Shown: positions 13,158 through 56,147 of the stretch, piece after piece
Numbering within the stretch: the stretch's first letter is position 1
Layout: every line of letters starts with the position of its first letter
Assembly: GCA_031409655.1 (NCBI GenBank)
Contig: JANNXQ010000012.1
Coordinates: 32,001-96,000, forward strand
DNA length: 64,000 nt
Direction of reading: 5' to 3'
Source of the DNA: Chthoniobacteraceae bacterium
Lineage (GTDB): Bacteria; Verrucomicrobiota; Verrucomicrobiia; Chthoniobacterales; Chthoniobacteraceae
Notes under the pieces: model-generated
Told to the model about the DNA's origin: nothing
Seen by the model: only the letters and a program-made list of their open reading frames with translations
The model's database searches: none
Position numbers and translations under genes: made by a program

Positions 13158-13649
13158 ATGAATGCGCATTCCGAAACGCAGATGACCAGGCGCGTCCCGC
13201 GATGCAGTGCCGCGTTCACCATTCTTGAGGCTGCGATTGCCTCCGCCTTGCTCGTGATCCTCGTCTCGACCGTGGCCGTGGCCATGATCCAGATCAATCG
13301 TTGGGCGGCGTCTGCTCGCCTCCAGACGATCGCGCTGGCCGTCGCGCAGCAGAAGGTGGATGAGGTGCTCGCCGTCCCGTGGCTGATCCGCAATCCGCGC
13401 CCCACCGTGCTCGCGGCCAGCACCGTGACCGAGAGTAACCTGACGCTGAACAACGACACCTTTAACTCCCAGACCGCCCTGAGTAGCCTGTTCACGGACC
13501 TCGATACTCCCGTCACCGCCACCCGCGTCACGGAGATCACCGATCTGCCGCCGCGCGGGGTCCGGGCTTCAGTGACGGTCAGCTTCACCTATCGGCAGCA
13601 TACCTATCGGTCCCAACTGACCACGCTCCGCGTCACCGATGACATCTAG
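13158..13649 (+). CDS. Type IV minor pilin / pseudopilin (PilV-like)
   Basis: Class III signal A|FTILEAAIASALLVILV with E5 and a hydrophobic helix. Confidence 0.8.
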   Translation: MNAHSETQMTRRVPRCSAAFTILEAAIASALLVILVSTVAVAMIQINRWAASARLQTIALAVAQQKVDEVLAVPWLIRNPRPTVLAASTVTESNLTLNNDTFNSQTALSSLFTDLDTPVTATRVTEITDLPPRGVRASVTVSFTYRQHTYRSQLTTLRVTDDI

Positions 13650-14559
13650 GCGCTCAGCATCGAACTCGGGCGGGATTGCAGGCTTCACGCTTGTGGAAAT
13701 GCTGATGGCCATCAGCATCTTCACCGTGGTCACGGCAGGATTGATTTCATTCAGTTCCTTCACAACGCGGACGGTCGCACGCAATCTCGCAACCAACCGG
13801 ACGCACGAGACAGTCCGCATCTCGAACCTGCAGTTCTTGCGCTATTTCCACGAATCCGCCTCCGCATTCCGCTTGCTGGATTTTAATGGCACCACCTACA
13901 CGGATGCCACCCCCGCTGGGACATCGGATCGAGATGCCACGACGGGAAGTTACGCGAGCACGCGCTCAAATGGCGTGCGTTTCCGGCGTCTCGCAGGCGG
14001 GCCTTACGCCTTCACGGCCAACACGACTTCGGGAAGCACGAACCTCTCCTTCAATTTCGCGGTGAATGGTCAGGTGCCCTACGTGCCGAGTGTCGGCGAT
14101 AAGCTGGTCATCCCGCTGATTTCCCGGGAGTTCGATATCTCCGCCGTTCCGACGGCCCCGACCACGGGGAGTCCTACCGGAACGGTGACAATTTCCGAGG
14201 CCGGCGGTCTGGGCTTCACGATCAATGCCACAACCGCGGGGAACACGACCACGGCCTACTTTTACCGGTCAACCGCCTTCACGGTTTGGGGTAACACCCT
14301 GCGCTATCACAACGATTTCACTGGAGTGCGGAAGGCCAACTTCACGGTCGTAAGGACGAACGTAACCTCACCGAAGCCCTTCTCGCTCCTCTACACGAGC
14401 CCGACTGGGACCACCGATGGACTTTCCGTGCGCATCTCGCTCGAAGCACACGATGGCGACTATTCCGCCCGGCGCTTCAGCAATGGAACCGCAACCCTCC
14501 AGGCCGTCATCCCGACCCGTTTTCTGCCCACGCCGATCACCTCGACTAACTCCAACTAA
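13639..14559 (+). CDS. Type IV minor pilin / pseudopilin (PilW-like), Thr/Ser-rich
   Basis: G|FTLVEMLMAISIF prepilin motif; overlaps the previous gene. Confidence 0.85.
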   Translation: MTSRRSASNSGGIAGFTLVEMLMAISIFTVVTAGLISFSSFTTRTVARNLATNRTHETVRISNLQFLRYFHESASAFRLLDFNGTTYTDATPAGTSDRDATTGSYASTRSNGVRFRRLAGGPYAFTANTTSGSTNLSFNFAVNGQVPYVPSVGDKLVIPLISREFDISAVPTAPTTGSPTGTVTISEAGGLGFTINATTAGNTTTAYFYRSTAFTVWGNTLRYHNDFTGVRKANFTVVRTNVTSPKPFSLLYTSPTGTTDGLSVRISLEAHDGDYSARRFSNGTATLQAVIPTRFLPTPITSTNSN

Positions 14560-14564
14560 ATCAA

Positions 14565-16472: not shown

Positions 16473-16478
16473 ACCTTT

Positions 16479-17039
16479 ATGAAAACCCATATCCTCTGCG
16501 CCGGCCTGGTCCTGGCCACTCAAGGCCTGCTCTCTGCACTCGATCTGACGCCCATCCAGAGCTTCCGGGAACTGGAAGGAATCAAGATCCCGATGGTTCG
16601 GTTTAGCGATGGTTCCCGCAGCGTGACTTTTCAACCGCCGTCGCAATGGCGCGTCAGTGGTGGTGGTGATCGCGTCCAGATTCTTCCCTCGGAGTTTCAG
16701 CGCGCCTTGTTTCAGCTTCACGTCTGCGAGCGGCCGGAGGTTTCGGCGGGGCAGGAAGAGGATCTCGGCAAGTGGACCCTGAGTCTTCTTCCAGACGGTG
16801 CCGAGGAAGTGGTGCCGAAAGGTGAGGCCGTGGGGCAGTTCACGCTCGGCGCAGTCCCGAGTAATGAGCGGACTTACTCATGCAATCTCGGCGGCCGTCC
16901 GAGTACGGTGTCAGTGGCGTGGGTGGATCTTGGGGAGAAAGAGCGTCTGGCGGTGCTGGTGATCGCCAGCGACAAGGATTTCAAGGCAGTCCATGAAGAG
17001 GCGATCCGCAGCCTCTTCAGTTGGAGTTGGAGCGACTGA
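16479..17039 (+). CDS. Exported hypothetical protein, last gene of the pilin-like operon
   Basis: 6 nt after the previous stop; N-terminal signal-peptide-like sequence. Confidence 0.7.
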   Translation: MKTHILCAGLVLATQGLLSALDLTPIQSFRELEGIKIPMVRFSDGSRSVTFQPPSQWRVSGGGDRVQILPSEFQRALFQLHVCERPEVSAGQEEDLGKWTLSLLPDGAEEVVPKGEAVGQFTLGAVPSNERTYSCNLGGRPSTVSVAWVDLGEKERLAVLVIASDKDFKAVHEEAIRSLFSWSWSD

Positions 17040-32462: not shown

Positions 32463-33743
32463 ATGCACCTTCCGACCCTCCGCGTGTTCACGGCGATCCT
32501 CGCCATCTCCCTCTTTCAGGTCCTCGCAGCCCAGGCGGATGTCGTGACGGATTGGAATACCATCGCCCTCCAGGCGATCAAAACGGACAAGACGCCGCCG
32601 CCAAAAGCTTCGCGCGCCCTCGCGATTCTCCACGTCGCGATCTATGACGCCATCGGCGCCACCACCAAGACGCATGACCCCTATCTCGTTAGTTGGCGGG
32701 CGCCGCGAGTCGTCTCCGTGGATGCGGCCGTGGCCGCCGCTGCGCGCGCCGTGCTCGTGCAGCTCTATCCCGCCCAAGCGCCCACCTTCGACACCGCCTA
32801 TGCAAATGCCATCGCGACCCTGCCGAAGAGCACCGGTCGCCAGGCCGGAATCGCGTGGGGCGAATACGTCGCCAAGCGAGTGCTCGCGCATCGCGCGAAT
32901 GATGGGGCCAGTGCCGTCGTTACTTACACGCCTGGCACTGCGCCTGGTGATTGGCAGCCCACGCCACCGGCACTCGCCGCCGCGCTCCTCCCCCAGTGGC
33001 CAAAGGTCCGCCCGTTCGTGATGAACAGCGGTCACCATTTTCGCCCGCCCCCACCGCCGCAGTTAGCCACCGCGCTCTACGCCTTTGACTTTAATCTCGT
33101 GAAAGATCTCGGCTCGAAAACCAGCACCACGCGCACTGCGGAGCAGTCCGCGATCGCGACTTTCTGGGCAGATGGTGGCGGGACGGTGACGCCTCCCGGG
33201 CACTGGAATGTGATCGCCCGCGATGTGGCGAATGTCCGCGGAAACACGGTCGCGCAAAATGCCCGCCTTTTCGCGCTCCTCAATGTCGCTCTCGCCGATG
33301 CCGCGATCTGCTCGTGGGATTGTAAATACTCGGACAATCTCTGGCGCCCGATCACCGCCATCCGCGCCGCCGACACCGATGGCAACAGCGCCACCAGCGC
33401 GGATCCCACCTGGACGCCGTTCCTCGTGACCCCGCCCTTTCCGGAGTACATCTCCGGTCACAGCACCTTCAGCGGCGCCGCCGCCACGGTTCTCGCGAGC
33501 TTCTTCGGGGCGGACGATATCCCCTTCACGACCACCTCCGAAGATTTGCCCGGCGTGACGCGTTCCTTTAACTCCTTCTGGGAAGCCGCTGCGGAAGCCG
33601 GCCTCAGCCGGGTCTTCGGAGGCATCCATTTCATGTCCGGCAATCAGCAGGGTCTCCAGTCCGGCGCGCGGCTCGGTGCCTTTGTCACGGAAAATGTCTT
33701 TGGTGAATGCGTGGGTCGCCCGCCCCGGACGGCTAAGCAGTAA
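32463..33743 (+). CDS. Secreted vanadium-dependent haloperoxidase / PAP2-family phosphatase
   Basis: Signal peptide; KYxxxxWRP, TPPFPEYISGHS, SRVFGGIHF. Confidence 0.85.
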   Translation: MHLPTLRVFTAILAISLFQVLAAQADVVTDWNTIALQAIKTDKTPPPKASRALAILHVAIYDAIGATTKTHDPYLVSWRAPRVVSVDAAVAAAARAVLVQLYPAQAPTFDTAYANAIATLPKSTGRQAGIAWGEYVAKRVLAHRANDGASAVVTYTPGTAPGDWQPTPPALAAALLPQWPKVRPFVMNSGHHFRPPPPPQLATALYAFDFNLVKDLGSKTSTTRTAEQSAIATFWADGGGTVTPPGHWNVIARDVANVRGNTVAQNARLFALLNVALADAAICSWDCKYSDNLWRPITAIRAADTDGNSATSADPTWTPFLVTPPFPEYISGHSTFSGAAATVLASFFGADDIPFTTTSEDLPGVTRSFNSFWEAAAEAGLSRVFGGIHFMSGNQQGLQSGARLGAFVTENVFGECVGRPPRTAKQ

Positions 33744-33830: not shown

Positions 33831-36011
33831 GTGCGCCACCACTCCCCAACCTCCGACATTGCCGAAGGACTCCGCCATCATCAGGCAGGGCGTCTGGAAG
33901 AGGCGGCAAAAAATTACCGGCAAATCCTGACGGAAGACCCCGAGCAGCCGGATGCGCTGCACCTTCTCGGAGTGGTCGCGGGGAGCATCGGTCAGCTCGA
34001 TGAGGCCGTCGAACTCATCTCGCAGTCGCTGCGTGTGAACCCCAACAATGCCTCCGCGATTAACAATCTCGCAGGGGTGCTGAAGGATCAGGCGCGATAT
34101 CCCGAAGCCATCGAATTTTACGAAGCCGCCATCGCGGCGGCGCCGAACGAAAGCTACATCCACAGCAATCTCGGCAACGCCCTGCGTGACGCCGGACGAC
34201 TCGAAGAAGCAGGAACGTGCCATCGGCGCGCCCTCGAACTAAGTCCCGATTCGTACGCGGCGCTTAGCAATCTAGGCTCCGTGCTCGACGCCCAGGGTCG
34301 GCTCGCTGAGGCGGTGGAGTGCTTTCGTCGCGCCTTGCAGCTCAACCCCGACAGCCACGAGACGCACGTCAATCTTGGCGTGACTTTGAAACGGGAAGGT
34401 CGGCTCTCGGAGGCGGAGGAGTGCCTGCGCCGCGCGCTCGATCTTCAGCCGCGCTCCGATGCCGCGCTGGCAAATCTCGGTTCCCTAATGCTCCAGCAGG
34501 GGCGCGTGGAGGAAGCCTTCGTCACGCTGGAACTCGCCCTCAGCGTCAATCCGCGGTCGGCCGTCGCGCTGATCAACATGGGCAATGTCCTCAAGGACCT
34601 GGGCCGATTCGCGGCGGCGCTGGAGTGCCTGCAAGCGGCCGTCCAGCTCGCCCCGAGATCCCATCTCGCGCACAATAATCTCGGCACCGTTCTCAATGAA
34701 CTCGGTCGCGCTGCCGAAGCCGCGGAATGCTTCCGCCGCGCTCTCGAGCTTCAACCCGACTACCACTGGGCGCACAGCAACCTGCTTTTCACGCTGCAAT
34801 ATCTGCCGGGGATCGATCGCGCGGAACTCTTCGCTGACCACCGTCGCTACGACGAAAAATATGCGCGCCATTTTACCGAGCGCGCTGCGTCGCACCCGAA
34901 TGCGCGCGATCCGAATCGCCGCCTGCGCATTGGTTACGTCTCCGGTGATTTCCGCGAACACTCCGTCGCCTTCTTCATCGAGCCCGTCCTCGCCAGTCAT
35001 GATCGCGATCAGTTCGAGGTCTTCTGCTACGCGAACCAGGTCGGCAATGACGCGATGACCGCCCGCTTGCGGGCGCTGGTCCCGCATTGGCGCGAGGTTG
35101 CGTCGCTCAGTGACGACGCCCTCGCGGCCCGCATCCGCCGCGACGAGATCGACATCCTCGTCGATCTCTCCGGCCACACCGCGCGCCATCGCCTGCTCAC
35201 CTTTGCCCGCAAACCCGCGCCCATCCAGGTGACGATGATCGGCTACATGCACAACACGGGGCTGAGCGCGATGGACTATCGCATCACCGACGTGACTCTC
35301 GACCCGCCCGGCACGAGCGAGACCTTGAATTCCGAAGAACTCATCCGCCTCCCGGCAGGCGCTGCGACTTTCCGCCCGCCGGCCGAATGCCCTCCGGTCA
35401 ACGACCTCCCGGCACTGACGAGTGGTTACGTGACTTTTGGGTCGTTTAACAATCTCGCGAAGGTCACGCCCGAAGTGATCGCGACGTGGGCGCAAATCCT
35501 GACGGCGGTGCCAGGCTCGCGCCTTCTGGTCGTCGGTCGTGGCGGCAATGCTGTGAAGCCAGAGATGGAAGCGCACGGCATCGCCGCGGAGCGCGTTGAA
35601 GCGATCGATCGTCAGCCACTGCGGAAATTCCTCGAATTGCATCACCGCGTCGATCTTACCCTCGACACGTTTCCCTACAACGGCGGCACCACTGGCTTGA
35701 TCGCGATCTGGATGGGAGCGCCTTTTGTTACCCTCGACAGTGGCCACACCACGGGACAAGCGGGCGGCGGGCTGCTCCGCCCCATCGGGCTCGCTCAACT
35801 CATCGCTGCTGACCCTGCAGATTATGCGGCGAAGGCCGTGGAGGCCGTGTCCGATCTCCCTCGTCTCGGGGAGTGGCGGTGTTCCTTGCGCGGTCGCATC
35901 GCACCATTGCTCGGTGGTGGCGAGGCTTACACCGGTCAGCTCGAAGCCGCCTACCGCGACAAGTGGCGGACGTGGTGCGCCCGGGAGGTGCCCGTGAACA
36001 ACTACTCATGA
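33831..36011 (+). CDS. TPR-repeat GT41 (OGT/SPINDLY-like) protein glycosyltransferase
   Basis: About nine TPRs, then LRIGYVSGDFREHSV, IDILVDLSGHT, KPAPIQV, FGSFNNLAK, LDTFPYNGGTT. Confidence 0.92.
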   Translation: MRHHSPTSDIAEGLRHHQAGRLEEAAKNYRQILTEDPEQPDALHLLGVVAGSIGQLDEAVELISQSLRVNPNNASAINNLAGVLKDQARYPEAIEFYEAAIAAAPNESYIHSNLGNALRDAGRLEEAGTCHRRALELSPDSYAALSNLGSVLDAQGRLAEAVECFRRALQLNPDSHETHVNLGVTLKREGRLSEAEECLRRALDLQPRSDAALANLGSLMLQQGRVEEAFVTLELALSVNPRSAVALINMGNVLKDLGRFAAALECLQAAVQLAPRSHLAHNNLGTVLNELGRAAEAAECFRRALELQPDYHWAHSNLLFTLQYLPGIDRAELFADHRRYDEKYARHFTERAASHPNARDPNRRLRIGYVSGDFREHSVAFFIEPVLASHDRDQFEVFCYANQVGNDAMTARLRALVPHWREVASLSDDALAARIRRDEIDILVDLSGHTARHRLLTFARKPAPIQVTMIGYMHNTGLSAMDYRITDVTLDPPGTSETLNSEELIRLPAGAATFRPPAECPPVNDLPALTSGYVTFGSFNNLAKVTPEVIATWAQILTAVPGSRLLVVGRGGNAVKPEMEAHGIAAERVEAIDRQPLRKFLELHHRVDLTLDTFPYNGGTTGLIAIWMGAPFVTLDSGHTTGQAGGGLLRPIGLAQLIAADPADYAAKAVEAVSDLPRLGEWRCSLRGRIAPLLGGGEAYTGQLEAAYRDKWRTWCAREVPVNNYS

Positions 36012-37174
36012 AACGCATCGAACGTCTCAAGGCCCGCCTCGTCGCCGCCGCCGATCAAGCCCGCCGCAATCCCTCCTTTGGCCTGCCCTCCTGGGCTGAT
36101 GAGAGCGTGCTCGCATCGCTCTGCAGCCGTCCCATCGTCTGCTGCGGCACCGGGTTTTGGGCGCAGGAGTTTTTGCGGAATGCGCGCGATCTCGACGTGA
36201 TCGCGCTGGTCGATGATTGCCACGGCGGGAAGCAGATCCTCGGGCTGCCATGCCTCGACACCGCCGGCTTCCTGAAACTCCTGGCGAAGCGCCCTGACGT
36301 CGTCTGTATCAACACCGGCCAAAGCGACGCCGGCTACAGCCACTTTGAGCGCCTCGGTCTCGAGCACGGACTGAAGATGCTCGATTGTCTGCAAGCGGTG
36401 CGCGCGTTTCGTTTCACGCCCGACATTCGTGTGGCCGACTGGCTCAACCCGATTGTCACCCGCATAGACGAATTTCTCGCCGTCGGCGAACGCCTTGCCG
36501 ACCCACTCTCCGTCGAGACGCTCTACTCGGTGTTGCTCTATCACCTCGAGACCGACCGCGAGCACCTGCTCTCGGTCAATCGTCCTGGCGAGGCGACTTA
36601 CTTTCGTTCAGGTCTCTTCACCATTCGCGACCGCGAGTCCTATGTCGATTGCGGTGCGTTCGACGGCGATAGCGTGCAGCAATTTATTCGAGTTGCGAAG
36701 GGGAAGTTTCATCGCATCCACGCCTTCGAACCCGACCCTCAGAATTTCGCCGGGCTTTCCTCATGGCTCGCTTCGGAGCCGCGTTACACCGACCGCGTCT
36801 CGGTGCATCAAAAGGCTGTGGGCAGTTCCAACGGATCGATCCAACTGAGTTCGACCGGGGATGCCGGCGCCTGTGTGCCGCTCTCCTCGAACGGTGCTGC
36901 GACCTGCACCGTGGATCTTGTAACTTTGGACGGGGCGGTCGATGGCCCGATCTCCCTTTTGAAACTCGACGTCGAAGGACACGAAATCGAAATCCTGCGC
37001 GGCGCTGTCGGACACCTCGAACACAACGGGCCTCGCCTCGCCATCTGCGCCTATCATCTGCCTGGAGATCTGATCGATCTGCCCGCCTTCATCGAGCAAC
37101 TCGACATCGGCTATCGCATCGGTATTCGCCACCATAGCGCCACGCGCTACGACACCGTGCTCTACGCATTTTGA
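36008..37174 (+). CDS. FkbM-family methyltransferase
   Basis: YVDCGAFDGDS, FEPDPQN, LKLDVEGHE, LAICAYH; ATGA overlap with GT41. Confidence 0.9.
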   Translation: MKRIERLKARLVAAADQARRNPSFGLPSWADESVLASLCSRPIVCCGTGFWAQEFLRNARDLDVIALVDDCHGGKQILGLPCLDTAGFLKLLAKRPDVVCINTGQSDAGYSHFERLGLEHGLKMLDCLQAVRAFRFTPDIRVADWLNPIVTRIDEFLAVGERLADPLSVETLYSVLLYHLETDREHLLSVNRPGEATYFRSGLFTIRDRESYVDCGAFDGDSVQQFIRVAKGKFHRIHAFEPDPQNFAGLSSWLASEPRYTDRVSVHQKAVGSSNGSIQLSSTGDAGACVPLSSNGAATCTVDLVTLDGAVDGPISLLKLDVEGHEIEILRGAVGHLEHNGPRLAICAYHLPGDLIDLPAFIEQLDIGYRIGIRHHSATRYDTVLYAF

Positions 37175-37178
37175 GTCG

Positions 37179-38375
37179 ATGACGCCGCTCATTCCACCTG
37201 CTGGCTACTTTGATGCTGCGACGTTTGCCGCGGAACGCGAGCGTGTGTTTTTGCGGAATTGGCTCTTCGCTGGCACCACCGCGCAATTGCTGAATCATGA
37301 AGACTACCGGCGCATTGAGATCTGCGGCGTGTCCGTGATCCTGCAAAATTTCCACGGCGAGATAAAGGCGTTCAACAACGTCTGCACGCACCGCTTCGCC
37401 CGGATCCACGCGGAGCCCGCTGGCAACCGGCCCCTCAAGTGCCGGTATCACGGCTGGATCTACAATGGCGAAGGACTGCCCTACGCGATCCCACGCAAAC
37501 CGTTCATCTCCGAGATCACGCCCGCGACACTGTGCGACTACCGGCTAAGTCGCTGGCACGTCCGAACCGTCGGCCCGCTCATCTTCATCAAGAAGGAGGA
37601 TGCTGGCGAGGCGCTGGCCGACGACGACTTCGACGCGCAACTCGACGAATATGCCGCGCCCTTGGCGCAACTCGCCGCAGCTTGCGGAGAACTCGTCGAG
37701 CAGACGGATTACGAAGTGAAGGCAAACTGGAAGCTCGTCGTGGAAAACACGCTCGAGGGCTACCACGTCGATTGCGTTCATCCAAATACGATCCGCAAGC
37801 TCGGGATGAGTGGCCTGACAAAAGTAACGAACGACGAGGCGCCCAGTTCCGCGCCTGCTCTGGGCAGTCGCTTCGACTTCGCCGGACAAAACTCCGCCGT
37901 CTTCTCGCCGCTAAATCCCGAGGTCTCGGCTCGCATGGATCGAACTTACAAATTTCTCGCAGGCCGTCCGCAGCAGCTCGACGGCTACCGCCACTACTAC
38001 TTCTTCCCGAATTTTGTCATCGCCTCCACACGGGGCGAGTCCTTCAGCATCCAGCGCGTCCTGCCGATCGACGAGCAGACGACGCAACTCTCCAGCTTCC
38101 TTTTTGCCACGAATGGTCTCGGCGATCTCACGAAGATGGAAGCGGCACTGCGGAAGCAGTTCTACCAATCCGCCGCGGAGTTTGTGCAGGCCATTTTCGT
38201 CGAGGATGGCGCCATCTGTGAAGAGGTGCAGCGTGGCGTCGCCTTTGCGCACACGGCCGGGGTGCTCAGCGACGAAGAGGAACGTATCTGCGCCTTTCAC
38301 ACCGCCTACCGCCACGCCCTCAATCCGCGCTGGAGCACAGCCGTCCCGGCGGTGCTCCGTGGCGCGACCCGATAA
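37179..38375 (+). CDS. Rieske non-heme iron oxygenase alpha subunit
   Basis: CTH-x16-CRYHGW Rieske motif; NWKLVVENTLEGYHVDCVH; EDGAICEEVQRG. Confidence 0.9.
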   Translation: MTPLIPPAGYFDAATFAAERERVFLRNWLFAGTTAQLLNHEDYRRIEICGVSVILQNFHGEIKAFNNVCTHRFARIHAEPAGNRPLKCRYHGWIYNGEGLPYAIPRKPFISEITPATLCDYRLSRWHVRTVGPLIFIKKEDAGEALADDDFDAQLDEYAAPLAQLAAACGELVEQTDYEVKANWKLVVENTLEGYHVDCVHPNTIRKLGMSGLTKVTNDEAPSSAPALGSRFDFAGQNSAVFSPLNPEVSARMDRTYKFLAGRPQQLDGYRHYYFFPNFVIASTRGESFSIQRVLPIDEQTTQLSSFLFATNGLGDLTKMEAALRKQFYQSAAEFVQAIFVEDGAICEEVQRGVAFAHTAGVLSDEEERICAFHTAYRHALNPRWSTAVPAVLRGATR

Positions 38376-38396: not shown

Positions 38397-38642
38397 ATGG
38401 AAATCCACCAATTCGTCCGCCACTTCGAAAACGCCATTGAAGGCATCGAGCCCGATTCACTGACGCCCGACACTAAGTACCATCTGCTCGCGCAGTGGGA
38501 TTCGCTCGGGCTCCTTTGCCTCCTCGCCATGATCGACTGCGAATACAATGCGCAGGTTCCCGGCATGGAGCTGAAGAGTTGCGACACCCTGCGCGACCTC
38601 TTCGATCTCGTCTGCTCAAAGCTCCACGTCCAGGCCGCCTGA
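38397..38642 (+). CDS. Acyl carrier protein
   Basis: 81 aa, acidic, WDSLG phosphopantetheine motif. Confidence 0.85.
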   Translation: MEIHQFVRHFENAIEGIEPDSLTPDTKYHLLAQWDSLGLLCLLAMIDCEYNAQVPGMELKSCDTLRDLFDLVCSKLHVQAA

Positions 38643-38643
38643 T

Positions 38644-39696
38644 ATGGCCCTCGCCGTCTTGCGCCGCGTGCGGATCGCCGGAGTCGCGTCCGCCGTCCCA
38701 AAGGAAGTGGTGTCCAATTCGGACTACACCGTCCTTTCTGAGGAGCAGCGCGAGAAGATCATCAAGTACACCGGCATCCGCTACCGCCGCTGGGCGCCGA
38801 AGGAGCTCTGCTGCTCCGATCTTTGCCAGGCCTCCGCTGAGAAGTTGATCGCGGAGCTTTCCTGGAATCGTGAAAGCATCGGCGCGGTCGTCTTTGTCTC
38901 GCAGACGCCGGACTATCCATTCCCCGCCACTGCACAGCTTCTCCAGCATCGACTCGGCCTTTCAAAGTCGTGCCTCGCCTTTGACGTGAATCTCGGTTGC
39001 TCCGGCTACACCTACGGCCTCCACATCCTCGGCAGTTTGCTCGAAGCCTCCGGCATGAAGCGCGGACTGCTGCTCGCGGGCGATGTCTCGAAAATGCACG
39101 GCGATAGCGATCCGGCGAGTGCGGTGCTCTTTGGCCACGCGGCCACGGCCACCGCGATGGAGTTCTCTCCCGGGACCAAGCCGCTCTACTTCGACATCGG
39201 CAGCGATGGCGGCGGACACAAAGTCATCTACGTGCCCGCCGGTGGCTGCCGGAATCCGGTCGGTGCGCAATCCTTCCAGAAAGCCTCGCTCGAAAGTGGC
39301 GGTGCGCGCGGCGAGACCGACGTCGTCCTCGACGCCGCGGAGATCATCAATTTCACCATGCGCGAAGTGAGCGTCTCCATTAAGCGGCTGTTGGAATTCG
39401 CGGGACGCACCGTGCCCGACATCGACGCCTACGTCTTTCATCAGGCGAATCAATTCATCAACAGCCAAGTCGCGCGGAAGATCGGCATCAAGGCCGATAA
39501 GGCACCCACGACGCTCTACGATTTTGGGAACACCAGCTCGGCGACCATCCCGCTCACCATCACCGCGAAGCTCCGCGAGCGCATCGCCGCCGGGCCGCAG
39601 AAAGTCGTGATGTCCGGTTTCGGCGTAGGGCTTTCGTGGGCCTCGACTTACTGGGAGGCGGAGGACGTGGCGTGTCCGGAACTCGTCGAAGTATGA
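38644..39696 (+). CDS. 3-oxoacyl-ACP synthase III (FabH-like), intact Cys-His-Asn triad
   Basis: DVNLGCSGY, FHQAN, FGNTSSATIP, GFGVGLSW. Confidence 0.92.
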   Translation: MALAVLRRVRIAGVASAVPKEVVSNSDYTVLSEEQREKIIKYTGIRYRRWAPKELCCSDLCQASAEKLIAELSWNRESIGAVVFVSQTPDYPFPATAQLLQHRLGLSKSCLAFDVNLGCSGYTYGLHILGSLLEASGMKRGLLLAGDVSKMHGDSDPASAVLFGHAATATAMEFSPGTKPLYFDIGSDGGGHKVIYVPAGGCRNPVGAQSFQKASLESGGARGETDVVLDAAEIINFTMREVSVSIKRLLEFAGRTVPDIDAYVFHQANQFINSQVARKIGIKADKAPTTLYDFGNTSSATIPLTITAKLRERIAAGPQKVVMSGFGVGLSWASTYWEAEDVACPELVEV

Positions 39697-40433
39697 CGCA
39701 TCCCTTTTCTCTCTCTGGCAAGACGGTGCTCATCACTGGCGCGACCGCGGGCCTCGGTCGGCAGACCGCGATCACTGCGGCGCAGATGGGTGCGCGGGTC
39801 CTCGTCACGGGGCGAAACGAAGAGCGTCTCGCCGCGACCCACAGGCAACTCGAAGGCTGTGGGCACCTGGCGATCGCCGCAAATCTCGTCGAGGAGAAGG
39901 AACGCGAAGCCCTTGTTAGTCAGCTTCCAGCGCTCGATGGCATCGTCCACTGCGCGGGGGTCACGTTGCTGCATCCGTTTAAGTTCAGCGACGAAAAGCG
40001 CTACCGCGAAGTGTACGCGATCAATGTCGAAGCGCCGCTTTTCCTCACTCAACGCCTCTTCAAAAGTAAGCGGCTCACCAATGGCGGGTCGATCGTCTTT
40101 ATCGCTTCGCTGGGGGCCTTCATCGGTGCGCGGGGGCACTCGATCTATGCGGGATCAAAGGCGGCCATCATCGGTATCATGAGGGTGCTGGCGCACGAAC
40201 TCGCCGGTAATGGCATCCGGGTGAATTGTCTCTCGCCCGGAATGGTAAAGACCGAGGTGGTCGATGGCTTTTCCCAGCAAGTCTCCGCCGAAGTCGTCGC
40301 TGCCGATGAAGCCCGCTACCCGCTCGGCTACGGCACGCCGGAGGATGTCGCCAATACCGCGGTCTTCTATCTCGCCCCCGCGAGCAAATGGATCACCGGC
40401 ACCAACCTCATCATGGATGGAGGCCTTACTTAA
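39693..40433 (+). CDS. SDR oxidoreductase (FabG-like)
   Basis: TGATAGLG, YAGSK (YxxxK), IRVNCLSPG, ITG..LIMDGG. Confidence 0.92.
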   Translation: MTHPFSLSGKTVLITGATAGLGRQTAITAAQMGARVLVTGRNEERLAATHRQLEGCGHLAIAANLVEEKEREALVSQLPALDGIVHCAGVTLLHPFKFSDEKRYREVYAINVEAPLFLTQRLFKSKRLTNGGSIVFIASLGAFIGARGHSIYAGSKAAIIGIMRVLAHELAGNGIRVNCLSPGMVKTEVVDGFSQQVSAEVVAADEARYPLGYGTPEDVANTAVFYLAPASKWITGTNLIMDGGLT

Positions 40434-40435
40434 TT

Positions 40436-40633
40436 ATGCCCATGTTCTCAATCGAACCCACCAAGCTCGGACGTTACATCTCAGGGACTGCTGCGGACGC
40501 GCGCATCCCGGATCCTGATGTGGAAATTCCCCTGAAACGAACTCCGGAACGAGGTGCCAAAGCCTCGCGTCGCAGTCTCGCTAAACCGTGCTCAAGCGCC
40601 GGCGACGAGGCTTCGGGCGCTCACCAAAGCTGA
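40436..40633 (+). CDS. Small hypothetical protein (65 aa) inside the operon
   Basis: ATG 2 nt after the SDR stop and TGA 1 nt before the next ATG, tiling the gap exactly. Confidence 0.5.
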   Translation: MPMFSIEPTKLGRYISGTAADARIPDPDVEIPLKRTPERGAKASRRSLAKPCSSAGDEASGAHQS

Positions 40634-40634
40634 T

Positions 40635-41678
40635 ATGCCCACGCTCTCGATTTCGAATGTCCGCTTCGCCGGACTCGCCGTCGCGGTGCCTCCAGTCGAA
40701 GAGGTTTCCTGGTCGGAAGTTTGGGGTGCGGATCACCTCCACGTCGCGCAACAGCGCCACGAAACGCCCTTTCGACGAATGGCGAAAGTCGAGCAGTGTC
40801 AGTCCGATCTCTGTGTCGATGCTGCACGGAGTCTTCTCGCCGATCTCAAGTGGGCTGCGGCGAGCGTTGACCTCGTCGTGATGGCTACGCTCACGCCTGA
40901 CTACCCGATTCCGGCGACGGCGATTATCGTGCAGGACCGTCTCGGTATTCCCAAGAGCGCCGCCGCCTTTGATCTCCCAAGTGGCTCGCTGGGCTTCATC
41001 CATGGCTTGCAACTCGTCGCCAGCATGCTGAATCCGGGTTCGTTTAAGCGCGCGTTGCTCCTCACTGGCGAGGTCTCGAAGACGCCGGATACTTCCGATC
41101 ACTGTGCGCCCCACCGCGCGATTCATGGCCATAGCGGGAGCGTGTGCGCTCTGGAGTTTTGGGAAGGGGCAGAGCCGATCTACTTCGATGCCGGCGGTGA
41201 CGGCGCGGATTTTGATGCGCTCTATATGCCCATCGGCGGCGTGCGCAATCCGCCTCGGCCCGAGATGTTCAATGACCCCGAAAGCGTGCGCGGGGCGAGC
41301 GAGTTTGTCCTGGATGCGGCGAAGCTTGGAGCACGGGCGCACGACGAATTGCCCGCGTCGATGCTGCGTGTCCTCGACGCGGCGGGTCACACTTCCCGGG
41401 AAGTAGATGCCTGTTACCTGAGCGAACTTCCGTTGCCAGTGGAGTCCGCGATCCGCCGGGAAATGCAGTTTCCGATCGACCGCTTGCACAGTGTCATTCC
41501 GGACTTCGGGGCGAGCGGATCGGGCACCATCCCACTCGCCATGCTGGCCCGCGAGGCTGCGCGTTTGCGCGCCGGTCGGCAGACCTCGCTACTCAGCGCC
41601 ATGGGCCCTGGCCTTGCCTGGGGAAGCGTGTTGCTCGCCACCGATTCCATCTCCTGCCCGGAACTCCTCGAAGTCTGA
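40635..41678 (+). CDS. FabH-like paralogue lacking the catalytic triad
   Basis: Aligns with 38644 (TPDYPIPATA..QDRLG, PIGGVRNP, CPELLEV) but has DLPSGSLGF, YLSELP and FGASGSGTIP at the Cys, His and Asn positions. Confidence 0.85.
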   Translation: MPTLSISNVRFAGLAVAVPPVEEVSWSEVWGADHLHVAQQRHETPFRRMAKVEQCQSDLCVDAARSLLADLKWAAASVDLVVMATLTPDYPIPATAIIVQDRLGIPKSAAAFDLPSGSLGFIHGLQLVASMLNPGSFKRALLLTGEVSKTPDTSDHCAPHRAIHGHSGSVCALEFWEGAEPIYFDAGGDGADFDALYMPIGGVRNPPRPEMFNDPESVRGASEFVLDAAKLGARAHDELPASMLRVLDAAGHTSREVDACYLSELPLPVESAIRREMQFPIDRLHSVIPDFGASGSGTIPLAMLAREAARLRAGRQTSLLSAMGPGLAWGSVLLATDSISCPELLEV

Positions 41679-41681
41679 CCC

Positions 41682-42668
41682 ATGCTTACTGGCATCCTCG
41701 ATAATCTGCTCCTCAACGGTGACTTCCTGCCTGATCTCTGGACCCGTCTGCCCGACCCACGCGCGTCCTTGGAATGCCCCAACTGGAGGCAGACCTTCGC
41801 CGTGGATCGCTGGAAGATCCGCTACGCGATGCCGCATGGCGCGGGCATTCGCCAGGCCATGTCCAGCGATGTGCCGATGCAAGCCGCCGCCGCGCGCAGT
41901 CTCGAACTACGGGGCGCCACAGGCGTCACTCAGCCGGTCTTTCTCGGACAGCGCATTGAGGCTGCGGAGGTTGTTCGTTACCGGCGGCGGATGATCTTTT
42001 CCGCCTGGGTACGAATCGAGCATCCCGACAAAGGCCCTAAAGAAGTGGACCTGACGATCGGTACCGCGCGGGACCCGGATGTCTTTGGTAATCCTTTCAA
42101 TGACAACGTCCGCAACGAAGTCAGCATTCGCTTTGAAGAAGCGCCGGTGGGCCGCTGGTGGCTTATCGAACGAGACATCGACGGTCGCGGCTTTGCCGCG
42201 AATGGGCTCTCGGTGGAACTGGAGTTTCCCGCGGACCTACTGGACACCCCGGATGCCCGCGTGCGGGTCGCGGCCCTGCGGCTCACGGATGCATCCGCGG
42301 CGGGCCGTTCCATGGAGCGGGCCGCTGGCGTCGAACGCCTCCTCGCGCGCCGTTTCTTCCAGCGCCATGATTCCAGCACCGTCAACTCCCTGGGCCGCGC
42401 GCTCGTGGTCAATGCGCACGAGCTGCACTTCCAATTCACCTTCGCCGAGATGCGCGCCTTTCCCGCCGTTACGCTGACGCAAGACGAATCCCAGCTCTGC
42501 GTCTTCAATCTCGAAGGCCTCCCGCAGACGGGCTTTACTTGTGACGTTACTTATCGCTCGTGTGGCTCTGTCATCCTCCGCGCCACCAAGGAAAACCACG
42601 GTTTGCGTGATGGCTTCCTTTCCTTTGTTGGCACCGGCGGCGCGATCCTTCTGGACGCGGAGTTATGA
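41682..42668 (+). CDS. Hypothetical protein resembling a phage tail-fibre C-terminal (carbohydrate-binding-like) domain
   Basis: NLLLNGDF..LW.R, FAVDRW, GQRIE, ERLLARRFFQR, EMRAFPAV, terminal LDAEL. Confidence 0.6.
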   Translation: MLTGILDNLLLNGDFLPDLWTRLPDPRASLECPNWRQTFAVDRWKIRYAMPHGAGIRQAMSSDVPMQAAAARSLELRGATGVTQPVFLGQRIEAAEVVRYRRRMIFSAWVRIEHPDKGPKEVDLTIGTARDPDVFGNPFNDNVRNEVSIRFEEAPVGRWWLIERDIDGRGFAANGLSVELEFPADLLDTPDARVRVAALRLTDASAAGRSMERAAGVERLLARRFFQRHDSSTVNSLGRALVVNAHELHFQFTFAEMRAFPAVTLTQDESQLCVFNLEGLPQTGFTCDVTYRSCGSVILRATKENHGLRDGFLSFVGTGGAILLDAEL

Positions 42669-43468
42669 CGACATTTCGTTTCGCGGAGTTCGGCGTGGAG
42701 CGCATTGAAAAGGGACGATCCACTTTCATCGCCGAAGACTCCCGGCAGCCAGCCTGGCGGGAATTTGAATCCTGGCGCGACGCCGGCAATCAGCCATTGC
42801 CGCTCGCGCGCCGTTCTCCGTTTGCAGTTGCCCGAGATCCCAAGCGTTTGTGGATCATCGGAGCCGGCGGCTTTGGTCGTGAGATTTTCGGAGCCGCACA
42901 ATCGGCCCTCGGACACCGGTCGGAGTGGGAGATCGCCGGGTTCCTGAATGACATCGTTGATTCGCTGGACGCCTTCCCGGAGTTCCCGCGGATCGCGGCC
43001 GGGACCGACTACGAACCAGAGGAAAATGACGTCTTCACTTGCGCGATTGGCGAACTGCCGGGGCGCCGTGATGTCTGCGAAAAATTCCGCGCGCGCGGAG
43101 CAAGGTTTGTCAATCTCATCCAGCCGATGGCCTGCGTCTCTCCGAGCGCGGAGCTGGGGCAGGGGATTATCGTCGAAGCCATGGCGGGCATCGGGGCGAA
43201 TGCGCACATCGGCGATTTTTCGACCGTCCTTAGTCACGCCAATGTCGGACACGATTCAAAGATCGGTGCGTATGTTTCCATCTCGCCGTTTGCCGCAATC
43301 CTCGGTCGCACCGAGATCGGCGAAGGCGTGGTCATCGGCAGCCACGCGGTCGTCTTGCCCGATGTGAAGATCGGTCCCGGTGCCACCGTCGGCGCCGGTA
43401 GTGTGGTGCTGAAGGATGTGCCTGCGGGCGCGACGGTCTTCGGCGTTCCGGCGATGCGGATCAAATGA
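42665..43468 (+). CDS. NeuD/PglD/VioB-like hexapeptide-repeat sugar acyltransferase with an extra ~55-aa N-terminal domain
   Basis: IIGAGGFGRE, IAGFLND, NVGHD, left-handed beta-helix repeats, VGAGSVVLKDV, GVPA; ATGA overlap. Confidence 0.88.
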   Translation: MTTFRFAEFGVERIEKGRSTFIAEDSRQPAWREFESWRDAGNQPLPLARRSPFAVARDPKRLWIIGAGGFGREIFGAAQSALGHRSEWEIAGFLNDIVDSLDAFPEFPRIAAGTDYEPEENDVFTCAIGELPGRRDVCEKFRARGARFVNLIQPMACVSPSAELGQGIIVEAMAGIGANAHIGDFSTVLSHANVGHDSKIGAYVSISPFAAILGRTEIGEGVVIGSHAVVLPDVKIGPGATVGAGSVVLKDVPAGATVFGVPAMRIK

Positions 43469-44727
43469 CCATGGCACCTACAACGGCACTCTTCGATTTG
43501 CCCGCTGCCGCGCTTACCGCGGGCGAGACCGTGGCGCCGCGGCTGTTGGGAATTCTCGGAGGCGAGCCTGCTTTTGCCGAACCGCTCCACGTCGGGCGGC
43601 CAAACATCGGCAACCGCGCGCGCCTCCAGGAGCGCATTGATGCGATGCTGGATGCACGGTGGTTTTCCAATGGCGGTCCGCTGGTCCGCGAATTCGAGGA
43701 CCGCATCGCGAAGTATCTCGGAGTGAAGCACTGCATCGCGACCTGCAATGGGACCACCGCGCTGATGCTCGCGATCCGCGGCCTCGACCTGAATGGGGAA
43801 GTCATCGTCCCGTCGTTCACTTTCATCGCCACCGCGCACGGCCTGCTCTGGCAGCAGACCAAGCCCGTCTTCTGCGACATCGATCCCGCAACGCACAATC
43901 TCGATCCTGTCTCCGTCGAGAAGCTGATCACGCCGTGGACCACCGGCATCATCGGCGTGCATCTGTGGGGTCGTCCGTGCCCGACTACCGCGCTCCAAGC
44001 TCTCGCAAAGAAACACCGACTGAAGCTGCTCTTCGACGCCAGCCATGCCTTCTCCTGCACGAATGACGGCGATTTCATTGGCCGATTCGGCGACGCCGAA
44101 GTCTTTAGCTTTCATGCGACGAAGTTCCTCAACGCCTTTGAAGGTGGCGCCGTGGTCACGCAGAACGATGCACTCGCAGAGAAGCTGCGGCTGATGCGCA
44201 ACTTTGGCTTCACTGGCTACGACAACGTCGAACACATCGGCATGAATGCGAAGATGACCGAGATCTGCGCGGCCATGGGCATCACGGGGCTCGAAAGCAT
44301 CGACGATTTCATCGCCGCCAATTTCCGCAACCACGCCGCCTACCGCAGCGCCCTCGCCGACTTGCCGGGAATCATTGTCGCCGAGTATGCGGAAGGCGAG
44401 AAGAGTAACTACCAATACGTGATCGTCGAAGTGGACCCCGATGAGTGCCCGCTGAATCGCGACGAACTCCTCCGCGTCCTCCACGCCGATCGCGTGCTGG
44501 CCCGCCGTTACTTTCATCCCGGCTGTCACCGCATGGAGCCCTACCGCACCCTTTATCCAGCTTCCGGCCTCGAACTCCCGGAGACCGAACTCCTCTCCGA
44601 GCGCATCCTTGCCCTCCCGACCGGCACCGCGGTGAGTCAGGACGATGTGGAGAGGGTCGGCACAATCATCCGCACCGCCCTCGTCAGCGCGGCAGAAGTG
44701 CGCGCGACCATTGCCCAGATGGGCTAG
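43465..44727 (+). CDS. DegT/DnrJ/EryC1/StrS aminotransferase (VioA/DesI-like NDP-4-keto-6-deoxyhexose aminotransferase)
   Basis: LHVGRPNIG, CNGT, VPSFTFIAT, FDASHA, SFHATKFLNAFEGG, ARRYF, LALPTG. Confidence 0.92.
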   Translation: MTMAPTTALFDLPAAALTAGETVAPRLLGILGGEPAFAEPLHVGRPNIGNRARLQERIDAMLDARWFSNGGPLVREFEDRIAKYLGVKHCIATCNGTTALMLAIRGLDLNGEVIVPSFTFIATAHGLLWQQTKPVFCDIDPATHNLDPVSVEKLITPWTTGIIGVHLWGRPCPTTALQALAKKHRLKLLFDASHAFSCTNDGDFIGRFGDAEVFSFHATKFLNAFEGGAVVTQNDALAEKLRLMRNFGFTGYDNVEHIGMNAKMTEICAAMGITGLESIDDFIAANFRNHAAYRSALADLPGIIVAEYAEGEKSNYQYVIVEVDPDECPLNRDELLRVLHADRVLARRYFHPGCHRMEPYRTLYPASGLELPETELLSERILALPTGTAVSQDDVERVGTIIRTALVSAAEVRATIAQMG

Positions 44728-48470: not shown

Positions 48471-49514
48471 ATGAGCCGCAAGACTATCGTCATCCTTTCA
48501 TTGCTGGTGCTCGCGGTCGCGGGGCTCTTTTTTGTCGGGCCCGTGGAGAGGGTGCTGAATGATCCCGCGCCATCACCCGAGGCCATGGCCGGGACGGAAG
48601 TGATCGATAAACCGCTGACCGTGCCGCTGCCGGAGCCAGTGCCCGAAATCGAGCCAGTGCCGCTTTCGACCCCCCTCAGCAAACGACTCGTGATCCGGGA
48701 GTCGGTGGATGTGCCGGTGCCGGAAGGCTCGGTGCGGCTGCTGCGCGGCATGGCGGTGTCGCTCGCGAAGGATGGCGGCGAAAAGGTGGACGTGAAATTT
48801 GGCAATGTCCGCAAGCCCACTCAGGTGACGGTGCCGCGGGGTGCGTTGGCGAATCGCGAGCAGCAGAGTGAGCCATCGACCTTCGGGCCGGTCGTCGCCC
48901 TGCAGAAGACGGTGAACAATATCTTCCAGGCGCCAGCCGGGAGCCTGGCGGTCGAGGCAAAGGAGATCGGGACGGGGCGCGGCGTCGCGCGCAGTTATGG
49001 CGTCGGATCGGAGTGGGATCGCACGGACAAGGAAACCTTCCGGACGAAAGGGCTCGCGGTGACGTTTCGGAATCTGAGCCGGCGGCCGACGGGGGATTGC
49101 GAGATCGTCGTCTGCTGGGTGGGCCGACGGCTCGCCGATGATACGCGCCACATCAGCCACGCGGAGACCTTCCGGGTGAATCTCGCGCCGCTCTCCGAGC
49201 ATCAGGCCACGAGTTGGTGCCCGCTGCTCGATGGGCGGCAGACGAAGTACTCGACGACCGGCGCGACGTTCCTTTCGGGGAGCAAGTTTGACGGTTGGTT
49301 TGCGATCGTGAAGCGGGACAGCCAGGTGCTCGTGGGGCGCGGCGGCACGGACGCTTACGCTACGATCCTCCGCGACCCCGCGCAGCTCGATCTGCTGCTC
49401 GCGAGCTGGGGTGGATCGACGCAGGGAGCGACCAGTTCGATGCCGAAGTGGCGGGACGAGCGTCCCGGTGCGAGCGCGATCCCGAGGCCGCGCACACCAC
49501 CGACGACTTACTGA
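48471..49514 (+). CDS. Membrane-anchored hypothetical protein
   Basis: N-terminal TM/signal, Pro-rich linker, beta-rich C-terminal region. Confidence 0.75.
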   Translation: MSRKTIVILSLLVLAVAGLFFVGPVERVLNDPAPSPEAMAGTEVIDKPLTVPLPEPVPEIEPVPLSTPLSKRLVIRESVDVPVPEGSVRLLRGMAVSLAKDGGEKVDVKFGNVRKPTQVTVPRGALANREQQSEPSTFGPVVALQKTVNNIFQAPAGSLAVEAKEIGTGRGVARSYGVGSEWDRTDKETFRTKGLAVTFRNLSRRPTGDCEIVVCWVGRRLADDTRHISHAETFRVNLAPLSEHQATSWCPLLDGRQTKYSTTGATFLSGSKFDGWFAIVKRDSQVLVGRGGTDAYATILRDPAQLDLLLASWGGSTQGATSSMPKWRDERPGASAIPRPRTPPTTY

Positions 49515-51705: not shown

Positions 51706-52144
51706 GAAAGGATGAAGGATGAAGGATGAAGGATGAGGGATGAAGTGGGCTAGCGTGCTGTTGCCTTTTTCACGATCGTGACCAGCATGGCGGTGAGTTC
51801 CTCAGTTTCCTGATGAAGCAATTCCAGTCGTTCGGGTGCGACGATTTTCCCCTCGCCGAGCAGCTCTAGCCAATAGCCGGTTTCTTCGAGTTCCTGCAAT
51901 GCACCTTCTATCTTGCTCACGAAATCGGCGTCCGACTTGGCGCGCTTCGCCTCACGATAGTGCGCGCCCACCGAAGTGGCAGATCGCAGCATCTGTCTGC
52001 CGAGGATTCGGGCCTCCTCTGTTTTTGGAAGGGACACGAACAGCTTGATACAACGGAGGGCGAATCGCTTGGTGCGCTGACGCAAGTCGCCTTCCGTTGC
52101 TCCACTCTTTTCTTCATCCTTCATCCTTCATCCCTAATCCTTTC
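51706..52144 (-). mobile_element. Heptamer-inverted-repeat element carrying a four-helix-bundle ORF
   Basis: Left arm GAAAGGAT(GAAGGAT)3GAGGGATGAAG, right arm CTTCATCCTTCATCCTTCATCCCTAATCCTTTC; sits between E1b and E2; sibling at 55458. Mobility is inferred. Confidence 0.6.
51750..52124 (-). CDS. Four helix bundle protein (23S rRNA IVP / Avd-like family)
   Basis: DLRQRTKRFALR, RQMLRSATSVGAHYREA.RAKS.ADF.SK, ELEETGYWLELL. Confidence 0.92.
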   Translation of the reverse strand: MKDEEKSGATEGDLRQRTKRFALRCIKLFVSLPKTEEARILGRQMLRSATSVGAHYREAKRAKSDADFVSKIEGALQELEETGYWLELLGEGKIVAPERLELLHQETEELTAMLVTIVKKATAR

Positions 52145-55467: not shown

Positions 55468-55568
55468 AGGCGGAAGGATGAAGGCTGAAGTAGTCAGCGC
55501 TGCGCGCCGCGGTGTCGATTTTCCACCACTCTTCACTTCATCCTTCATCCTTCATCCTTCATCCTTTC
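55458..55568. repeat. ORF-less copy of the GAAGGAT heptamer inverted-repeat element
   Basis: GAAAGGATGAAGGCGGAAGGATGAAGGCTGAAG ... CTTCATCCTTCATCCTTCATCCTTCATCCTTTC. Confidence 0.85.
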
Positions 55569-55571
55569 CCC

Positions 55572-56147
55572 ATGACTCAAGACTGGACCATCCAAGGCCG
55601 CTCGCATTCCTGCTCCTCCACGGGGCGGGATTTTAGTGAGGGCGAATTTTTTTACACGTTGCTCTTCGATGAACCGGCGGGCTTTCGGCGCGAAGATTGG
55701 TGCGAGGAGGCCTTCAAAGCGCGGCCTGCGGAGGCGGCCGCACCGTATTCGCAGTGGCGGGCGAAGTATCAGCCGCCCGCGCCCCCGCCGCCGGAAGCGC
55801 TCGGCAAGCAGACCGCGGAAGACCTGCTCCGCCGCTACATGGACGAGGACACGCCGCAGCACACGAATGCGCGCTACCTGCTCGGGGTCATGCTCGAACG
55901 TAAACGCTTGCTCAAAGAGGTGGAGGTGAAAAAGGGCGACGATGGGCAGATCGTCCGCATCTACGTCCACAACAAGACGGGCGAGGTTTTCATCGTGCCT
56001 GACCCGCAGCTCCGGCTCGATCAACTCGCGGCCTTGCAGGTGGAGCTGTCCGGCCTGCTTTCGCCCGAGGCCGCTGCCGCGCCGATGGCGCCCCCGGAAG
56101 AGTCGCCGGTCCCCGCAGAGACCTCCGAAACTCCCGCTGAGCCATGA
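55572..56147 (+). CDS. Hypothetical protein
   Basis: MTQDWTIQGRSHSC...LERKRLLKEV; coupled (ATGA) to the RidA gene. Confidence 0.8.
   Translation: MTQDWTIQGRSHSCSSTGRDFSEGEFFYTLLFDEPAGFRREDWCEEAFKARPAEAAAPYSQWRAKYQPPAPPPPEALGKQTAEDLLRRYMDEDTPQHTNARYLLGVMLERKRLLKEVEVKKGDDGQIVRIYVHNKTGEVFIVPDPQLRLDQLAALQVELSGLLSPEAAAAPMAPPEESPVPAETSETPAEP

Follow-up and report, generated by a model that had tools for sequence, protein, structure and literature searches.

Within a 64,000-nucleotide window from the genome of a Chthoniobacteraceae bacterium (phylum Verrucomicrobiota; assembly GCA_031409655.1, contig JANNXQ010000012.1, positions 32,001 to 96,000), an operon resembling viosamine islands for protein glycosylation contains two elements related to phage tail proteins. 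The first is a whole gene, named X here (41682..42668, + strand), whose 328-aa product is a stand-alone tip module of a widespread, unnamed class of phage tail fibres and includes a domain resembling carbohydrate-binding module (CBM) family 4. The second is a peptide of about 50 residues that forms the N-terminus of a sugar N-acyltransferase encoded by the next gene (42665..43468, +, 267 aa) and that is, as judged by profile comparison, a homologue of the small protein encoded after such fibres in phages (phrog_34019/20370 type). It is very probable that X and the peptide originated in phages and have been retained in cells, and a good deal of confidence can be placed in their binding to each other in vivo, as predicted by a model of the complex. 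That the domesticated pair now constitutes an intracellular dock with a role in sugar handling is, in our estimate, an even proposition. The names X, FabH1 and FabH2 are coined here, and Vio names are given by enzyme class after PMC3927599.

Homology of X to phage tail fibres

X is not a chance open reading frame (ORF), since a word-index search recovers 71 homologues at 43–92% identity; 68 of the 71 cover at least 98% of the query, most are 310–338 aa long, and source names on two of them are Opitutaceae and Chthoniobacteraceae. Direct searches with X gave no Pfam (best E 0.16), PHROG or NCBIfam match, tblastn against phages found none, and locus searches were negative both with the X sequence alone in genomes and with the X alignment in viral contigs; the phage link is visible only through profiles and folds. 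A profile built from 69 X sequences matched 945 cluster representatives at E up to 0.001. When 76 of the 150 representatives listed were scanned against PHROGs, 54 matched a tail family, 12 matched phrog_17105 only and 10 matched nothing; phrog_4492 was present in 48 of the 54 tail-family matches, mostly through its last 300 positions, and the deep members P0074 and P0075 match phrog_4492 directly. Aligned by hhalign to a profile of 31 short distant modules, the X profile scored 100% (E 4e-45, 307 columns). The AlphaFold2 model of X has a pLDDT of 93.5, and with it a Foldseek search of BFVD matches at least 500 predicted viral proteins; among the 50 best matches listed TMq is 0.60–0.79, and every functionally named one is a tail-fibre or carbohydrate-binding protein. 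ESM Atlas independently connects X to viral clusters at 0.95–0.96. An earlier note, made from the sequence alone, had taken a series of motifs in X for those of a tail-fibre C-terminal domain. All of these motifs are present in the order it gave, with LDAEL at the end, and profile and structure comparisons of the kind it proposed (here hhalign, Foldseek and phrog_4492 in deep members) found the similarity whose absence would have spoken against it.

The module begins at residue 7, and residues 1–5 are the sole disordered part of the model. Structure comparison and Foldseek against the PDB assign residues 7–204 (41700..42293, +) to a CBM4/16/22-like β-jelly-roll, which superimposes on the CBM4-2 structure 4bj0 over 163 aligned residues (Z 14.6, rmsd 2.7 Å, 10% identity); PF02018 has no match in X itself and is present in 37% of the members of one Atlas neighbour cluster. 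Residues 226–328 (42357..42665, +) make up a C-terminal β domain with the MRxxP motif (257–261) and the final DAEL. Taken alone, this domain gave no convincing match to a solved structure (best Z 4.8); the tied weak matches, which include tailspike C-termini and H-type lectins, are not used as evidence. An xAEL-like motif is found at the C-terminal end in 74 of 139 distant matches. The 70 distant modules kept, out of 139, by length and end motif have N-terminal extensions of 1–663 residues, shorter than 10 in four of the 70. X has no N-terminal shaft or anchor of the kind that a functional phage or tailocin tail fibre possesses, no hydrophobic segment, and no signal peptide or membrane segment (top 19-residue hydropathy 1.03), and should therefore meet the enzyme in the cytoplasm. 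It is present in a single copy in the genome.

Among the more distant relatives, a family of about 700 aa (P0079–P0082, P0085 and similar) has two tandem CBM-like domains and a phrog_17105-like C-terminus; P0079 has no Pfam match. Seven proteins outside the X clade (P0078, P0097, P0106, P0182, P0200, P0206 and P0209) have the tip subtype of X after MRxxP and, on the basis of this sequence feature, are candidates for the donor lineage.

The partner peptide and its fusion to an acyltransferase

The fusion ORF overlaps X by ATGA and opens, as the earlier note had described, with the peptide (about residues 1–50; 42665..42814, +). In an alignment of 17 peptides, 10 of the 17 members match each of phrog_34019 and phrog_20370 (best E 5.4e-7 and 2.8e-5), and the corresponding hidden Markov model (HMM) finds gp51 of phage S-2L as the best of 48 phage coding sequences (E 2.4e-8); in S-2L, the fibre gene gp50 and gp51 share a 4-nt overlap. 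The bacterial peptides align with phage partners in hhalign at 96.4% (E 1e-9). Among 33 viral loci fetched with two phage peptide-like proteins as queries, some of them near-duplicates, an X-like module lies directly upstream of the partner ORF in all 32 that have an upstream ORF, and the bacterial peptide HMM matches 29 of the 33 partner ORFs. The likeness to the small gene that follows such fibres, pointed out in the earlier note, is thus well founded. In phages the partner may be a free protein of about 50 aa or may head a longer one with varied cargo, such as DUF4376 in Silvanus gp20. The link from fibre to peptide is not universal: of seven annotated phage loci chosen by their fibre, three are without such a next gene, and across the seven the peptide HMM is significant for S-2L gp51 only, with three more alike by alignment. 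The S-N03 locus (L024, 910–9763) contains four annotated fibre genes ending in AEL/AEF in one cluster and no adjoining peptide-like gene; its partner may be encoded elsewhere or be dispensable.

Peptide tblastn returned only E values of 0.1 or more, and a protein search with the peptide profile gave one match, at E 0.085. Fusion residues 1–57 match no Pfam family at E up to 1, including the Tfa families, and the peptide matches no PDB chain by sequence at E up to 10, including the solved Tfa chains. The "assembly-like" name of gp51 traces to its likeness to an S-CRM01 protein which, by eye, resembles the C-terminal part of gp51, and hence does not establish a chaperone activity for the peptide. 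The label "chaperone" that the peptide had been given is the tentative part of the earlier description, there being no Tfa-family match.

After the peptide, the one open frame continues into a VioB/NeuD/PglD-type sugar N-acyltransferase (PglD_N plus hexapeptide repeat; 42836..43468, +). PglD_N begins at fusion residue 61, close to the residue 58 proposed from the sequence, TIGR03570 (NeuD/PglB/VioB) spans residues 62–263 with 185.1 bits against a cut-off of 160.8, and the GAGGFG and HD motifs are conserved. An internal start of the acyltransferase at the in-frame GTG/TTG codons 11, 45 or 62 was considered and rejected: in relatives the upstream frame is open, has the same length and is under purifying selection. 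Among 20 other loci, 18 have the peptide after X and in a single frame with the acyltransferase, and X is apart in the remaining two; the fusion is present in 18 of the 18 loci where the peptide follows X, and in three more, with a length of 267–268 aa wherever complete (three loci are cut by locus ends). The fusion is therefore real, and the acyltransferase does not start downstream of the peptide.

Modelled complex of X and the peptide

A model of X with the peptide scored 0.88, versus 0.01 for the best control, and passes a score mark which, in counts that are rough with the alignments used here, is reached by 116 of 157 solved complexes and 2 of 215 mismatched pairs. The runs agree in at least 97% of contacts, with a partner pLDDT of at least 83. 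No solved chain is similar by sequence to X or to the peptide, which makes it unlikely that the model recalls a like complex. In the model, a peptide strand (17–23) and helix (about 28–40) contact X, whose C-terminal domain carries most of the interface: peptide residues 18–22 touch X residues 262–267, right after MRxxP, and further contacts are placed at X residues 133–139, 286–292 and 323–328. The modelled contacts would thus lie beside MRxxP and the terminal xAEL, a possible reason for the persistence of these motifs in phages.

Distribution, selection and domestication

Scans with the X alignment yielded 20 bacterial loci, of which L012 and L013, as well as L016 and L020, are near-duplicates. 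In the 18 loci with the peptide after X, the operon genes upstream have the same order as far as each contig extends. In the other two (L009 and L011, in genomes G311 and G313), FabH2 is followed by the intact peptide fusion, and X is found away from its operon position, about 3.3 kb downstream of vioA; the two genomes are close kin and are counted as one relocation event. When genomes were selected by FabH1, 12 of 150 family genomes matched, 11 of them at 70–92% identity. X is present in 10 of these 11 (in some by coordinate matching of loci); the sequence of the remaining one stops at a contig end 13 nt past FabH2. Both X and the peptide are missing from distant operons in G206 and G803. With 5–7 candidates scored per genome, X was found in 0 of 300 genomes of an order sample and 0 of 400 of a phylum sample.

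Nei-Gojobori estimates of dN/dS are 0.14–0.37 for the CBM and 0.07–0.21 for the C-terminal part of X (8 of 9 pairs, one being saturated), 0.09–0.43 for the peptide and 0.08–0.15 for the acyltransferase (9 of 11 pairs, with one saturated and one near-identical pair set aside), all of them rough because dS is high (about 0.7–2.9). GC and GC3 of X (0.62/0.72) and of the peptide (0.61/0.67) are like those of the neighbouring genes (GC3 0.71–0.80). In a quick, unrooted tree that includes the 70 distant modules, the 25 X-clade rows (21 of the 69 aligned sequences and four deeper ones) fall on one side of a branch with an SH-aLRT of 100. From the contrast between this narrow clade and hundreds of diverse tail-associated relatives, and not from a root, we infer that transfer went from phage to cell; most X-clade proteins are presumably bacterial, the context being seen for few. 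Mean identity after MRxxP is 0.64 among X orthologues versus 0.19 among phage-like modules, and that of the CBM 0.46 versus 0.39; the phage-like set consists of 50%-cluster representatives, so that the contrast within each set is what counts. A tip that is conserved in X and variable in phage-like modules fits a fixed ligand or partner and not an arms race.

No phage structural gene was detected among the window ORFs scanned (43 by Pfam and 14 by PHROGs, covering the operon, ORFs of about 250 aa or more around it and a few beyond 56 kb), in agreement with the earlier note's statement that the window has no other phage gene. A sheath gene has no match in this 95%-complete genome, in a search whose control was positive in 3 of 14 and which did not extend to tube and baseplate families; a phrog_4492 search of the same genome was also negative, as were its controls, and is uninformative. 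The fixed place in the operon, the purifying selection, the single clade and the retention after relocation of X bear out the domestication that had been proposed, and a survey of homologues, likewise suggested then, finds them recurring in glycosylation operons rather than solely as decaying prophage remnants.

Proposed function and alternative explanations

We propose that a phage pair, consisting of a tip module and a small binding protein, entered, in a single capture, a viosamine-type protein-glycosylation operon in soil and freshwater bacteria of the Verrucomicrobiota, where the partner peptide would have become the N-terminus of the sugar N-acyltransferase and X would have been kept without a fibre shaft. 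The peptide would add a β-strand to the C-terminal domain of X and lay its helix against the CBM domain, so that X is held on the acyltransferase; since hexapeptide acyltransferases are trimers, the stoichiometry would probably be 3:3. X might then serve, without catalytic activity, as a subunit for binding sugar or substrate, presenting or holding the nucleoside-diphosphate (NDP)-amino sugar, the acylated product or the glycosylated acceptor, in a pathway that would lead from amination by VioA, through acyl supply by the acyl carrier protein (ACP), FabH1–FabH2 and FabG and tailoring by the Rieske and FkbM enzymes, to transfer by GT41 onto a protein, most likely flagellin. The enzyme could take a trimerizing role, comparable to that of the Tfa C-domain, and at the same time acquire X as a subunit. 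Homology, fusion, selection, single clade and co-retention are computed here, and the binding is modelled. We infer the stoichiometry, ligand, acceptor and direction of transfer. The docking suggested in the earlier note thus gains a passing complex model, with its biochemical role still conjectural, and is rated above the decoy and glycosylation-target ideas offered beside it. A further idea, that tip and partner serve as a plug-and-socket tag and that X possibly recognizes the flagellar glycan which the ancestral phage used as receptor, falls slightly short of an even chance.

By enzyme class the operon contains the gene set of a viosamine island (vioA, vioB, KAS III, reductase, ACP, methyltransferase and glycosyltransferase), the same classes being present in the Pseudomonas syringae island according to PMC3927599. 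Flagellin glycosylation islands of enterobacteria, as described in PMC4875605, combine GT41, FkbM, NeuD, DegT, ACP and FabG. An RmlB gene for the precursor is present above cut-off in the genome. Flagellin_N is found in this genome, in nine of the 10 genomes behind L002–L011 and in G754; flagellin is present in 11 of 12 X-bearing genomes, whereas the order sample has it in 31 of 300 genomes overall and in 10 of the 39 that belong to the family. In L002, fliD and fliS directly follow vioA, and their counterparts here are on another contig. Flagellin is a likely candidate for the acceptor of the operon glycan.

Several points weigh against the proposal as a whole. A CBM-like fold is no proof of sugar binding, and interface residues are no more conserved than the rest of the domain (0.76 vs 0.76; 0.57 vs 0.58). 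The X tree is quick and unrooted, and X is frameshifted in one locus of the 20 (L019). The flagellin link is confounded by kinship, flagellin has no match in G761, a 93%-complete genome that bears the operon, genus g7 is flagellated (5/5) with the operon FabH1 in 0 of 22, and this genome has six other full-length GT41 paralogues. Viosamine islands that have been characterized work with an unfused VioB and no X-like subunit, according to PMC3927599, and X is accordingly not chemically required in general.

If the peptide were instead a true assembly chaperone of X, the acyltransferase would be merely a trimeric carrier, and X would have its function somewhere else, for instance as a lectin for binding or checking glycosylated flagellin. 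The peptide does complete a sheet of X in the model, phage peptides occur alone (about 50 aa) or N-terminal to varied cargo, and Mu Tfa and Pam3 gp25 join a fibre-binding N-domain to a trimerizing C-domain (PMC9608196). However, a free 50-aa peptide is enough in many phages, and a fixed fusion to one enzyme across 43–92% X identity is unneeded for folding alone; that X alone folds confidently in AlphaFold2 (pLDDT 93.5) is weak evidence in the same direction, and we regard this explanation as unlikely. Surface-glycan loci are natural sites of phage-resistance functions, and a shaft-less X with its tethered peptide could poison or titrate the fibre assembly of incoming phages that bear the module, both halves of the phage assembly interaction being in the cytoplasm (no hydrophobic segment). 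A precedent for blocking tail assembly is offered by the Tai systems, according to PMC11364771. Nevertheless, the tip domain of X is more conserved than the rest, not less, the gene is single-copy with a fixed place in a metabolic operon, X would be saturated by its own peptide and the peptide by X, and PADLOC 2.0 (library from 2023) assigned 0 families to five of five proteins, all of which makes a decoy quite unlikely.

X might also be a substrate of GT41, or an adhesin of the cell surface or flagellum that the peptide retains before export, as could befit a descendant of a receptor-binding protein with a CBM-like fold encoded beside a protein glycosyltransferase; but the lack of a signal peptide, membrane segment and anchor domain, the disorder limited to residues 1–5 and the failure to find a sheath gene in the 95%-complete genome render this very unlikely. 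A functionless prophage remnant carried along with the operon would agree with the patchy spread (none in either sample) and with the frameshifted L019 copy. Against it stand dN/dS values well under 1 at dS of about 0.7–2.9, lengths of 310–338 aa in most homologues, host-like GC3, retention after relocation and the absence of phage neighbours, and it appears extremely improbable.

Tailocins, gene transfer agents and contractile injection systems are phage tail genes kept by cells with the tail retained, and MYRF kept a single self-cleaving tailspike-chaperone domain and not a two-protein pair; unlike in all of these, only a two-gene interaction pair is kept here, in a sugar pathway. To our knowledge, the domesticated phage tails described so far keep the tail machine. 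Homology extends over the whole length of the phage module (C-terminal part of phrog_4492, S-2L gp50) and small gene (phrog_34019, phrog_20370, gp51 N-terminus), and the S-2L-type pair has the same CBM-like plus β domain, MRxxP, xAEL end, gene order and 4-nt overlap; it differs in that here there is no shaft or anchor, there are no phage neighbours, the tip is conserved and a metabolic enzyme carries the partner as a fusion. As with Mu Tfa and Pam3 gp25, the gene immediately after the fibre encodes a small N-terminal module that would bind the distal part of the fibre and is followed by a separate C-terminal domain; the peptide differs in being much shorter and in showing no sequence similarity to the Tfa families or to solved Tfa structures. 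The islands of P. syringae and P. aeruginosa PAK (vioA, vioB, vioS, vioR, acp, vioM, vioT) have the enzyme classes of the operon, the correspondence being by class; unlike them, the operon includes the X gene, a VioB fused to the peptide, a second FabH without the Cys and a Rieske oxygenase, and it is usually not beside flagellar genes (adjacent in L002 only). No description of the pair or of the fusion was found in the literature searched, a scope that excluded subscription papers and supplements, and "CBM" and "carbohydrate-binding" do not occur in the main text of the RBPseg atlas (PMC12143355). The operon is a variant of known viosamine islands, and the captured pair fused into it matches no kind that we found.

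If the docking proposal is correct, a bare two-protein tail interaction would have been reused as intracellular wiring, a new route from viruses into cell metabolism. At least 500 predicted viral structures share the module, yet for both the module and its partner there is no Pfam family and no solved relative by sequence; the model of X with the peptide also suggests how a common, uncharacterized fibre/partner gene pair of phages may bind. The soluble, shaft-less bacterial pair could serve as a model for structure, for ligand and for the partner as chaperone versus permanent cap, and a 50-residue tag with a dedicated binding domain could be used as a docking tool.

The operon and its surroundings

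The operon is encoded on the + strand in the order TPR-GT41, FkbM, Rieske oxygenase, ACP, FabH1, SDR, FabH2, X, peptide-acyltransferase, DegT/VioA. Family scans identify the TPR plus GT41 protein glycosyltransferase (33831..36011), the FkbM methyltransferase (36008..37174, its start inferred from relatives), the Rieske ring-hydroxylating-type oxygenase (37179..38375), ACP (38397..38642; PF00550, scanned from residue 2), the FabH1/VioS-like KAS III with an intact NLGCSG (38644..39696) and the FabG/VioR-like SDR (39693..40433). The VioA/DesI-like DegT aminotransferase (43465..44727) matches PF01041 and, at E 1e-157 but below its cut-off, TIGR04427. The six TPR-GT41 paralogues are on contigs C195, C274, C186, C25, C139 and C131, none of them on the flagellin contigs C243 and C89.

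In none of the 13 loci examined does FabH2 (40635..41678), a KAS III homologue, have the catalytic Cys motif, and NLGCSG is retained in FabH1; FabH2 is probably the non-catalytic partner in a KAS III heterodimer, a pairing that we presume to resemble PqsBC. Between SDR and FabH2 lies a 199-nt insert (40434–40633), missing in relatives, which opens by repeating the initial 18 nt of fabH2 at 83% identity, contains a 65-codon ORF and is likely a decayed duplication; L016 has a similar fabH2-start remnant placed between two SDRs. Many relatives have an extra Rieske oxygenase after GT41 (L004 1500–5717; L005 2638–5697; L007, L015, L055), accompanied, where examined, by a second hexapeptide transferase; a second FkbM is present in L004, and two SDRs each in L007, L016 and L057. 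These differences in gene content may represent variable glycan tailoring.

Elsewhere in the window, neither Pfam nor PHROGs gave a match, at the thresholds applied, for the ORFs at 13639–16721, 48471–49514 and 55512–56147. A secreted PAP2/vanadium-haloperoxidase-like gene (32463–33743) immediately precedes the operon and is not at that place in L003. A four-helix-bundle gene of the 23S rRNA IVP family (51750–52124, − strand) is located between E1-beta and E2 in a 2-oxoacid dehydrogenase operon.

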